From positions 52,753 to 116,752 of the IMG/VR virus record IMGVR_UViG_3300033148_002122: a stretch of DNA of 64,000 nucleotides, one strand, 5' to 3'. The notes under the pieces are model-generated. The model made no database searches and was not told the origin of the DNA. It saw only the letters and a program-made list of their open reading frames with translations. Shown one piece after another: positions 46,023 to 46,113 of this stretch (its first letter is position 1; every line of letters begins with the position of its first letter). This DNA comes from a virus. Made by a program: the position numbers and the translations under genes.

Positions 46023-46113
46023 GGGAGTGCCGTTAACCCCGAACGGACGGCGCTACTAGCCTGCCCTACGGCAGAACCTAGGCAAAGGGGTTCTTTCATA
46101 GCACCTCACTCCC
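46023..46113 (-). ncRNA. Candidate structured ncRNA with a possible pseudoknot, directly 3' of tRNA-Val
   Basis: Four nested helices plus a loop pairing (see findings); a G-U pair favours the - strand. Confidence 0.55.

Follow-up and report, generated by a model that had tools for sequence, protein, structure and literature searches.

What is the 91-nucleotide (nt) stretch, rich in guanine and cytosine (GC), that stands between a pair of tRNA genes and the protein-coding genes behind them in a phage operon? The locus lies in the last 64 kb (64,000 nt, the window) of a 116,752-bp virus record (IMG/VR IMGVR_UViG_3300033148_002122; 39.4% GC, ten tRNA genes). The element is the minus strand of window positions 46023-46113, and its RNA nucleotide n corresponds to coordinate 46114-n. 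We found that it is probably a real structured RNA, which we tentatively read, with confidence that stays below even, as an anticodon-less tRNA-minihelix mimic defined by RNase P and acting mainly in cis. Its kind is best read, by analogy, as that of the stable RNAs that abut tRNA genes in phages T4 (rnaC, rnaD) and T5 (RNAI, RNAIII, RNA1, RNA2H). New relative to the T4 and T5 kind would be the smaller size and a Watson-Crick pseudoknot that replaces the tRNA elbow; we claim no membership of a family.

A closed element directly after tRNA-Val

The sequence-only reading of this locus had quoted the minus-strand letters of 46023-46113, which are identical to the window sequence, and had placed the element right after tRNA-Val. 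Only CCU (46114-46116, minus strand) lies between the discriminator A of tRNA-Val and the first G of the element. We found that tRNA-Val ends at 46117 (the discriminator) by Rfam and at 46115 by ARAGORN; therefore, the element begins directly after CCU. The order on the minus strand is tRNA-Ile, CCCU, tRNA-Val, CCU, element. The CC of the spacer could be the start of a CCA end, and its U could be nucleotide -1 of an RNase P cut. CC-U follows seven of the eight tRNA genes in the window and CCA follows tRNA-Arg; the letters 'ACCU' also follow several tRNAs of an unrelated phage record, G001.

On the other side, the AU-rich linker UUUAAUAAAU and then the Shine-Dalgarno sequence GAGG of the next gene occupy 46005-46022 (minus strand) of the sequence, and 18 nt in all (UUUAAUAAAU, GAGG and 4 nt) lead from the P1 end of the element to the next AUG. 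This Shine-Dalgarno sequence is not sequestered by the element fold. The AUG opens an open reading frame (ORF) of 50 amino acids (aa) (ORF50, 45852-46004, minus strand), which has a weak zinc-ribbon likeness. The element lies between the tRNA genes and ORF50 and thus forms the boundary of the tRNA part and the mRNA part in one transcription unit.

In base composition the 91-nt element (46023-46113, minus strand) stands out as a sharp GC island. GC content has a local maximum of 0.60 in the 90-nt interval 46023-46112 (genome mean 0.394, standard deviation (SD) 0.062), and the limits of this interval coincide with the element.

All of the helices named earlier, P1 to P4, are present in the element sequence (all on the minus strand; mean pair probabilities of the nested ensemble in brackets). 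P1 joins GGGAGUG (nt 1-7, 46107-46113) to CACUCCC (nt 85-91, 46023-46029) by seven Watson-Crick pairs (0.94), the first of which is G1-C91. P2 joins GGUGCUA (nt 9-15, 46099-46105) to UAGCGCC (nt 59-65, 46049-46055) by seven pairs, one of them U-G (0.35). P3 is the hairpin CUAG-GUU-CUGCC-GUAG-GGCAG-G-CUAG (nt 33-58, 46056-46081), paired in P3a at nt 33-36/55-58 (CUAG/CUAG; 0.18) and in P3b at nt 40-44/49-53 (CUGCC/GGCAG; 0.57). P4 is a T-arm-like hairpin, CCGUU-CGGGGUU-AACGG (nt 68-84, 46030-46046; 0.29), with its stem at nt 68-72/80-84 and the 7-nt loop CGGGGUU, and it adjoins P1 with no spacer. The strands of the resulting three-way junction have only 0-2 nt each.

A loop contact had also been predicted, and the complement is there: six bases of the P4 loop, GGGGUU (nt 74-79, 46035-46040), match AACCCC (nt 22-27, 46087-46092, minus strand), which lies inside the 17-nt junction J2/3. 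The hexamer AGAACC, which overlaps AACCCC with a 2-nt shift, can pair instead with GGUUCU (nt 36-41). P1 and the position of the element are solid; the interior helices and the pseudoknot are plausible.

We scored pseudoknots by taking suboptimal nested structures within 4 kcal/mol and adding to each one helix between unpaired bases. The best structure was the fold of the sequence-only reading plus AACCCC/GGGGUU, at -46.7 kcal/mol, a score reached by 2 of 400 dinucleotide shuffles (mean -37.3, SD 3.3, z -2.86). Only with the pseudoknot counted does the element beat its shuffles. The element also keeps its own P1-closed domain when folded within 296 nt that extend over the two tRNAs and the following start codon.

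Likeness to tRNA

The geometry of a tRNA acceptor stem and T arm was evident, as had been proposed: P1 (7 bp) directly adjoins P4 (5 bp with a 7-nt loop), which makes a 12-bp frame. With an unfiltered covariance model of the element, run on the tRNA regions of T4, T5 and G001, P1 lined up with the acceptor arm and P4 with the T arm of tRNAs, or of a transfer-messenger RNA (tmRNA)-like RNA, in all five of the best printed alignments. These matches had E values of 0.6-9 (0.6-4 for the five best) and are not significant.

The remainder of a tRNA is missing. By inspection, nt 16-58 contain no arm with a 5-bp stem and a 7-nt loop, in keeping with the earlier statement that there is no anticodon arm. 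The T-loop consensus is UUCRANY, which forms the elbow with the GG of the D-loop; the P4 loop is CGGGGUU, and the statement that it lacks the consensus is likewise correct. ARAGORN called eight tRNAs in the window, none of them at 46023-46113, and the Rfam tRNA model RF00005 gave no match at the element at E ≤ 10. We therefore reject the element as a tRNA on four counts: no ARAGORN call, no Rfam match, no anticodon arm and a P4 that has no T-loop.

A wider search gave no family either. The sequence-only reading did not recognise one, and an Infernal-type search of 251 nt (45950-46200) against Rfam 15 (4227 families, among them tmRNA, YrlA, riboswitches and self-cleaving ribozymes such as twister, hatchet, pistol and hammerhead) returned no match for the element at E ≤ 10; it returned tRNA-Val, one chance match on the other strand and nothing else. 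At the gathering thresholds, a search of the whole window returned the eight tRNAs only.

With the tRNA (RF00005) and the tRNA-like domain of tmRNA (RF00023), the element thus has in common a closing helix of 7 bp, next to which a 5-bp stem bearing a 7-nt loop is stacked. It differs in having no anticodon arm, D hairpin, T-loop or CCA end, and neither model matches it at E ≤ 10. The term tRNA mimic, used earlier as one option, stands as far as the 7+5 geometry and the model alignments go, but the matches behind those alignments are not significant.

A candidate RNase P-defined minihelix mimic

Bacterial RNase P favours a U at position -1 and a G1-C pair. Because of the frame geometry, the U at -1 and the G1-C91 pair, we infer that host RNase P would recognise the 7+5 frame and cut between U(-1) and G1. 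By this single cut, tRNA-Val would keep a 3-nt CCU trailer and the element would gain a fully paired 5' end. A likely site for an endonuclease is the AU-rich UUUAAUAAAU that follows P1. After the RNase P cut, a second cut in UUUAAUAAAU might set the element free as a small stable RNA; alternatively, the element might remain joined to the ORF50 message and cap its 5' end with structure, much like a t-element.

In this proposal the elbow that a tRNA makes from its T-loop and D-loop would be replaced by the 6-bp Watson-Crick pseudoknot GGGGUU/AACCCC, which would hold P2 beside P4 in the manner of the D-loop/T-loop contact. The function would be processing punctuation together with protection of the new 5' end.

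There are precedents for such processing. Passages of PMC11143913 describe RNase P as cutting closely spaced T4 tRNA dimers and the phage non-tRNA RNAs M3 and C4. The t-elements of plant mitochondria mark mRNA ends and are presumed targets of tRNA-processing enzymes, according to an excerpt of PMC1920247, and the likeness is that of a tRNA-like fold without decoding at an mRNA boundary. The differences are that t-elements occur in an organelle and share no ancestry with the phage element, that cleavage of the phage element is predicted from sequence and geometry, and that most tRNA-ORF junctions of this phage carry no such element.

Stable RNAs in other phage tRNA clusters

The sequence-only reading had named no family, and in this it fell short: the closest known objects are stable RNAs that lie directly beside tRNA genes in T4 and T5. 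In T4, tRNA-Arg is followed after a 1-nt gap by rnaD (119 nt) and, after a further 6-nt gap, by rnaC (139 nt), which has a canonical T arm. In T5, RNA1, RNAI, RNAIII and tRNA-His follow each other without a break, and RNA2H ends 19 nt short of tRNA-Ala; each of these four T5 RNAs has a closing terminal helix and is annotated with 'unknown functions'. According to GenBank notes, T4 rnaC and rnaD (species 1 and 2) and the T5 RNAs are discrete accumulating species.

We found that the element shares the placement of these RNAs, being non-coding, on the tRNA strand and a few nt from a tRNA gene; the T4 and T5 RNAs are separated from a tRNA gene, or from one another, by 0-6 nt. It also shares the closing terminal helix of the T5 RNAs and T4 rnaC, and its T-arm-like P4 has a counterpart in the T arm carried by T4 rnaC and T5 RNA1. 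The differences are size (106-172 nt compared with 91 nt), the non-canonical T-like loop and the Watson-Crick pseudoknot in place of an elbow.

The likeness does not extend to sequence. Local alignments to 9 of 10 comparison RNAs scored within the range of shuffles, and the covariance model of the element matched no T4 or T5 stable RNA. T5 RNAI has one 13-nt stretch in common with the element, with a score that 3 of 300 shuffles reached before correction for ten comparisons; the stretch occurs in 306 near-identical T5-like copies. We rejected kinship with RNAI, since the stretch sits in a different structural place and its score is marginal after ten comparisons.

Similar elements occur elsewhere. 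A second one in the window (49560-49714, minus strand, about 150 nt) stands directly after the CC-U of tRNA-Ala. Its closing helix of 9 bp is followed by a hairpin, a long central arm and a T-arm-like hairpin with the loop UGGGGAA that adjoins the 3' strand of the closing helix; no Rfam model matched it at E ≤ 10. The unrelated large phage record G001 has several closed non-tRNA elements directly after 'ACCU' tRNA ends.

Two further RNAs of G001 are recorded here as side observations. The first (locus L089, 5636-5717, minus strand) measures 82 nt, has a canonical T arm and a 5' end like that of tmRNA, and scores 51.3 bits with the Rfam tmRNA model (gathering threshold 47). It spans model positions 1-374, with the tRNA-like domain and no mRNA-like part, and follows tRNA-Val and another closed element of 93 nt. 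The second (locus L090, 8182-8592, minus strand) is a GOLLD-like RNA next to tRNA-Leu(UAA), with 121 bits and an E value of 5e-32, below the gathering threshold of 150.

Fold stability, chance and a role in trans

Several results weigh against an RNase P-defined mimic acting in cis. The plain minimum free energy (MFE) of the element, -36.3 kcal/mol, is unremarkable (z -1.2, matched by 26 of 200 shuffles; z -1.4, matched by 38 of 400, in a second set), and the pseudoknot-aware score that does stand out includes no pseudoknot penalty. The MFE structure also differs from the fold of the sequence-only reading, pairing AGAACC (nt 20-25) with GGUUCU (nt 36-41) and CUAUG with CGUAG; that fold, in its nested form, has -33.7 kcal/mol, which is 2.6 above the MFE. 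The interior helices reach only 0.18-0.57 in the nested ensemble, with AGAACC/GGUUCU as the rival interior. The element had been described as highly paired, and this is true of P1, which is robust, but the interior has an alternative fold of similar energy.

The frame itself is common. Under a strict descriptor (7 Watson-Crick pairs, a directly adjacent 5-bp stem and a 7-nt loop), we counted 6 sites in the 116.7-kb genome, the element among them; the reversed genome gave 6 as well, and ten block-shuffled genomes gave 0-6 each. Hence, the 7+5 frame alone is not rare, because control genomes hold as many. A frame that starts within 4 nt of one of the ten tRNA ends is rare, at about 1 in 1000 by arithmetic from these counts. 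The tRNA-Ala element, the G001 elements and the T5 RNAs have no 12-bp stack.

Recognition and need are the other weak points. The CGGGGUU loop is off the T-loop consensus, and P1 is followed by UUUAAU rather than by RCCA; either feature could weaken recognition by RNase P. Five of the eight tRNAs in the window run directly into the ribosome-binding site of the next ORF with no element between; as for the other three, tRNA-Ile and tRNA-Leu(UAA) precede another tRNA and tRNA-Ala has its own element. Therefore, punctuation is not a general need. In addition, we found no homolog of the element in the viral, metagenome, phage and genome collections searched.

These points bear on the possibility that the element is a mere remnant rich in GC, for instance an acquired fragment or what is left of a tRNA-like gene, that happens to fold with no function of its own. 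We regard such a chance or relic origin as unlikely, if worth serious consideration. The modest z of the plain MFE, the equal frequency of 7+5 frames in control genomes, the ambiguous interior fold and the lack of a relative in any collection searched all fit it. However, five perfect or near-perfect helices and a 6-bp Watson-Crick loop complement in 91 nt are hard to reconcile with chance, given the 2 of 400 shuffles above. The element starts exactly after the CCU of the tRNA and ends exactly at the GC boundary, phage genomes rarely keep a useless 91 nt inside an operon, and the tRNA model sees no residual tRNA similarity.

The cis reading is weakened further by the possibility of a role in trans, such as that of a decoy. 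The same RNA could act as a released stable small RNA, either a tRNA-shaped decoy or sponge or a base-pairing RNA; proposed targets of a decoy are a host tRNA-directed nuclease, a tRNA-modifying or CCA-adding enzyme and RNase P. Set out in this full form, the proposal is in our view doubtful. Its placement and closed architecture are those of the T4 and T5 stable RNAs, which are discrete species by the GenBank notes; GC richness and paired ends favour stability, and punctuation is evidently unneeded at most tRNA-ORF junctions. On the other hand, no partner, target or defence context was identified, the T-loop consensus on which most tRNA-binding proteins rely is absent from the loop, the RNA encodes neither a CCA nor an RCCA end, and no homologs were found.

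Homolog search

Exact word searches gave no relative, and the element has no short words in common with any other DNA stretch analysed alongside the window. With 17-20-mers in viral contigs, the two patterns from the element hit 0 and 6 stretches and the tRNA-Val 3' end hit 0; we rejected the 6 matches as chance, as they lie inside unrelated sequence. With 18-mers in genome contigs, there were 8 and 10 stretches, those of the second pattern in unrelated sequence, and the covariance model of the element gave nothing better than E 0.17 on these 18.

Alignment searches agreed. A blastn search with 1.3 kb of the locus against 50,697 phage records matched 142 records, and the 40 matches listed lie over tRNAs only. 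The element alone gave 4 chance matches of at most 27 nt against the same records. An nhmmer search of 86 loci with the element gave one match, at E 1.3. The single-sequence covariance model found only the element itself in 9 sources, and nothing in 48 whole viral records or in 80 metagenome loci (446,513 bases).

Neighbouring and hallmark proteins were also traced. The 141-aa protein encoded near the element has no relative in viral contigs and, in a set of 5.8 billion proteins, matched only itself, with an identical copy on four contigs. For the sugar aminotransferase we found 114 viral and 549 metagenome relatives, all at 66% identity or less and all lacking the element. Among the viral aminotransferase loci just 5 have upstream tRNAs, and no comparable element is found around those tRNAs. 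A 369-aa DUF362-like protein has one relative, in G001, at 44% identity. The terminase has no relative in viral or genome contigs; G001, having no terminase match, is therefore not close kin. Two cyanophages with a tRNA pair like Ile-Val, S-SZBM1 and S-H9-2, were considered and rejected, as their tRNA-Val runs straight into a coding sequence with no element. Taken together, the searches with neighbour and hallmark proteins show almost no sampling of this phage lineage in the collections used.

Ribozyme, switch and peptide readings

Another account of the position is a self-cleaving ribozyme that frees the 3' end of tRNA-Val, either a divergent hepatitis delta virus (HDV)-like ribozyme of the theta type or a new class. 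We think this very unlikely. Theta ribozymes, the minimal form of HDV-like ribozyme, occur no more than 5 nt to either side of the 3' ends of phage tRNAs according to passages of PMC10879173, and the element shares with them a phage origin, a start directly after a tRNA 3' end and a compact, GC-rich and pseudoknotted form. An HDV-like fold can indeed be drawn from just after the discriminator, with P1 CCUGGG/CCUAGG, P2 GGUGCUAU/GUAGCGCC, P3 AAAG/CUUU and P4 UCUGCC/GGCAGG, and with CUA (C first) as J4/2. This relaxed nested double pseudoknot starts right after the discriminator; the relaxed topology also turned up in 57 of 3000 shuffles. In such a fold the 3' 26 nt would be a competing domain.

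The details of the drawing speak against it. Features conserved in HDV-like ribozymes are a G1-Y pair that opens a 7-bp P1, two C-G pairs in P1.1, U...CG in L3 and CRRA in J4/2 (excerpt of PMC6326823). In the drawn fold P1 starts with C, with no G1-Y, and has 6 bp rather than 7; P1.1 is A-U rather than two C-G pairs; L3 is AACCC, without the U...CG of the reverse wobble; and J4/2 is CUA(G) rather than CRRA. No Rfam ribozyme model matched at E ≤ 10. The HDV-like fold leaves out the two strongest complementarities of the element, its own P1 (GGGAGUG/CACUCCC) and the AACCCC/GGGGUU pseudoknot, which contradict it. In the fold of the sequence-only reading, the 5' end is at the outer end of the 7-bp P1, far from any core. 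Moreover, theta ribozymes come mostly from gut phages, in the passages of PMC10879173, whereas the phage of the element looks marine. The earlier suggestion that the RNA could be a ribozyme thus lost ground, with no known class matched and the conserved HDV-like nucleotides missing.

The two pairings of one strand bring in a different idea, that the element is a cis-regulatory leader, riboswitch or conformational switch for the ORF50 operon, in which AGAACCCC would pair with either GGUUCU or GGGGUU and the choice would toggle processing or stability. Both the leader and the toggling proposal are, in our estimate, extremely doubtful. Three-way junctions with a distal loop contact resemble small aptamers, and here one strand has two mutually exclusive, perfect 6-bp pairings in an element directly 5' of an ORF. 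However, the ribosome-binding site is outside the fold and unsequestered in both conformers, there is no terminator downstream, the junction strands of 0-2 nt are too small for a pocket, and no Rfam riboswitch matched.

The region could instead encode a peptide of 43 aa (ATG at 46099, stop at 45968), which we find barely credible. This ORF, the only one inside the element, exists and has GAGGUG upstream, but that Shine-Dalgarno sequence is only 3 nt from the AUG, 37 nt of the ORF overlap ORF50 in another frame, the product has no Pfam match, and its GC content of 60% is unlike that of the phage's genes. We rejected it on spacing, the overlap with ORF50 and the absence of a Pfam match.

Operon and genome context

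A sigma-70-type promoter, TTGACA-17-TATACT with a TG motif (11 of 12 consensus matches), lies at 46275-46303 on the minus strand. From its position, the transcript should start on the first nucleotide of tRNA-Ile or no more than a few nt away from it. tRNA-Ile(UAU) is the first gene of the transcription unit (46193-46266, minus strand; Rfam 67.1 bits; the two programs together give limits of 46190/46193 and 46266/46267), followed by tRNA-Val(UAC), which reaches its discriminator A at 46117 (46117-46188, minus strand; Rfam 61.5 bits; 46115/46117-46188 by both programs). The CCU spacer (46114-46116) and the element come next. Behind ORF50, the minus strand carries the 141-aa ORF, the sugar aminotransferase gene and an epimerase-like gene, and no terminator-like site was found in 45300-46700. 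tRNA-Ile, tRNA-Val, the element and the small ORFs form one operon behind one strong promoter.

A TTGACA-17-TATACT promoter 7 nt before the mature 5' end is found at tRNA-Thr (about 51640-51668, minus strand) as well as at tRNA-Ile (46275-46303, minus strand). Both transcripts may have almost no 5' leader.

The genome encodes DNA polymerase, terminase, ribonucleotide reductase, DnaB, primase and a UvsX-like recombinase, and its source looks like an uncultured marine phage. The ribonucleotide reductase (1144 aa; 55494-58928 of the window, minus strand) has an HNH endonuclease match at about residues 483-589, which suggests an intein or an inserted homing endonuclease.

Two other GC-rich places were noted. 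At about 32000-35100 of the window, an island of some 3 kb with 59-72% GC carries minus-strand ORFs of 100-190 aa. Four of these were tested in Pfam, with three giving no match and one a weak, sub-threshold match, and the island has no tandem repeats and no Rfam match; it is possibly an acquired cassette. The GC peak of the genome at 15378-15467, outside the window, was rejected as an RNA: it is a coding tandem repeat with CAGCCTGTTGCG units that encodes an Ala/Gln/Pro/Val stretch.

Implications for phage tRNA clusters

The element is a single orphan sequence and, therefore, its value is that of a lead, not a result. The boldest version of what it leads to is that it is the first example of a new phage RNA class, a bistable, pseudoknot-elbowed tRNA-minihelix mimic. 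Paired with GGUUCU, AGAACCCC would leave the RNA with no elbow and, paired with GGGGUU, it would make one, so that recognition by the tRNA-processing or tRNA-targeting machinery would be switched. A variant of this idea is a new class of self-cleaving ribozyme for the release of tRNA 3' ends. Even taken jointly, the two are improbable. Were either of them true, the 'stable RNAs' of phage tRNA clusters would gain a defined function.

Work on T4 and T5 long ago showed that phage tRNA clusters contain additional small stable RNAs, and database records annotate their function as unknown. The element from this phage is a very small example at 91 nt, with a simple fold proposal and a clean tRNA-mRNA boundary behind a strong promoter. 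It is thus a convenient object for asking whether such RNAs are punctuation and stability modules defined by RNase P or whether they act in trans.

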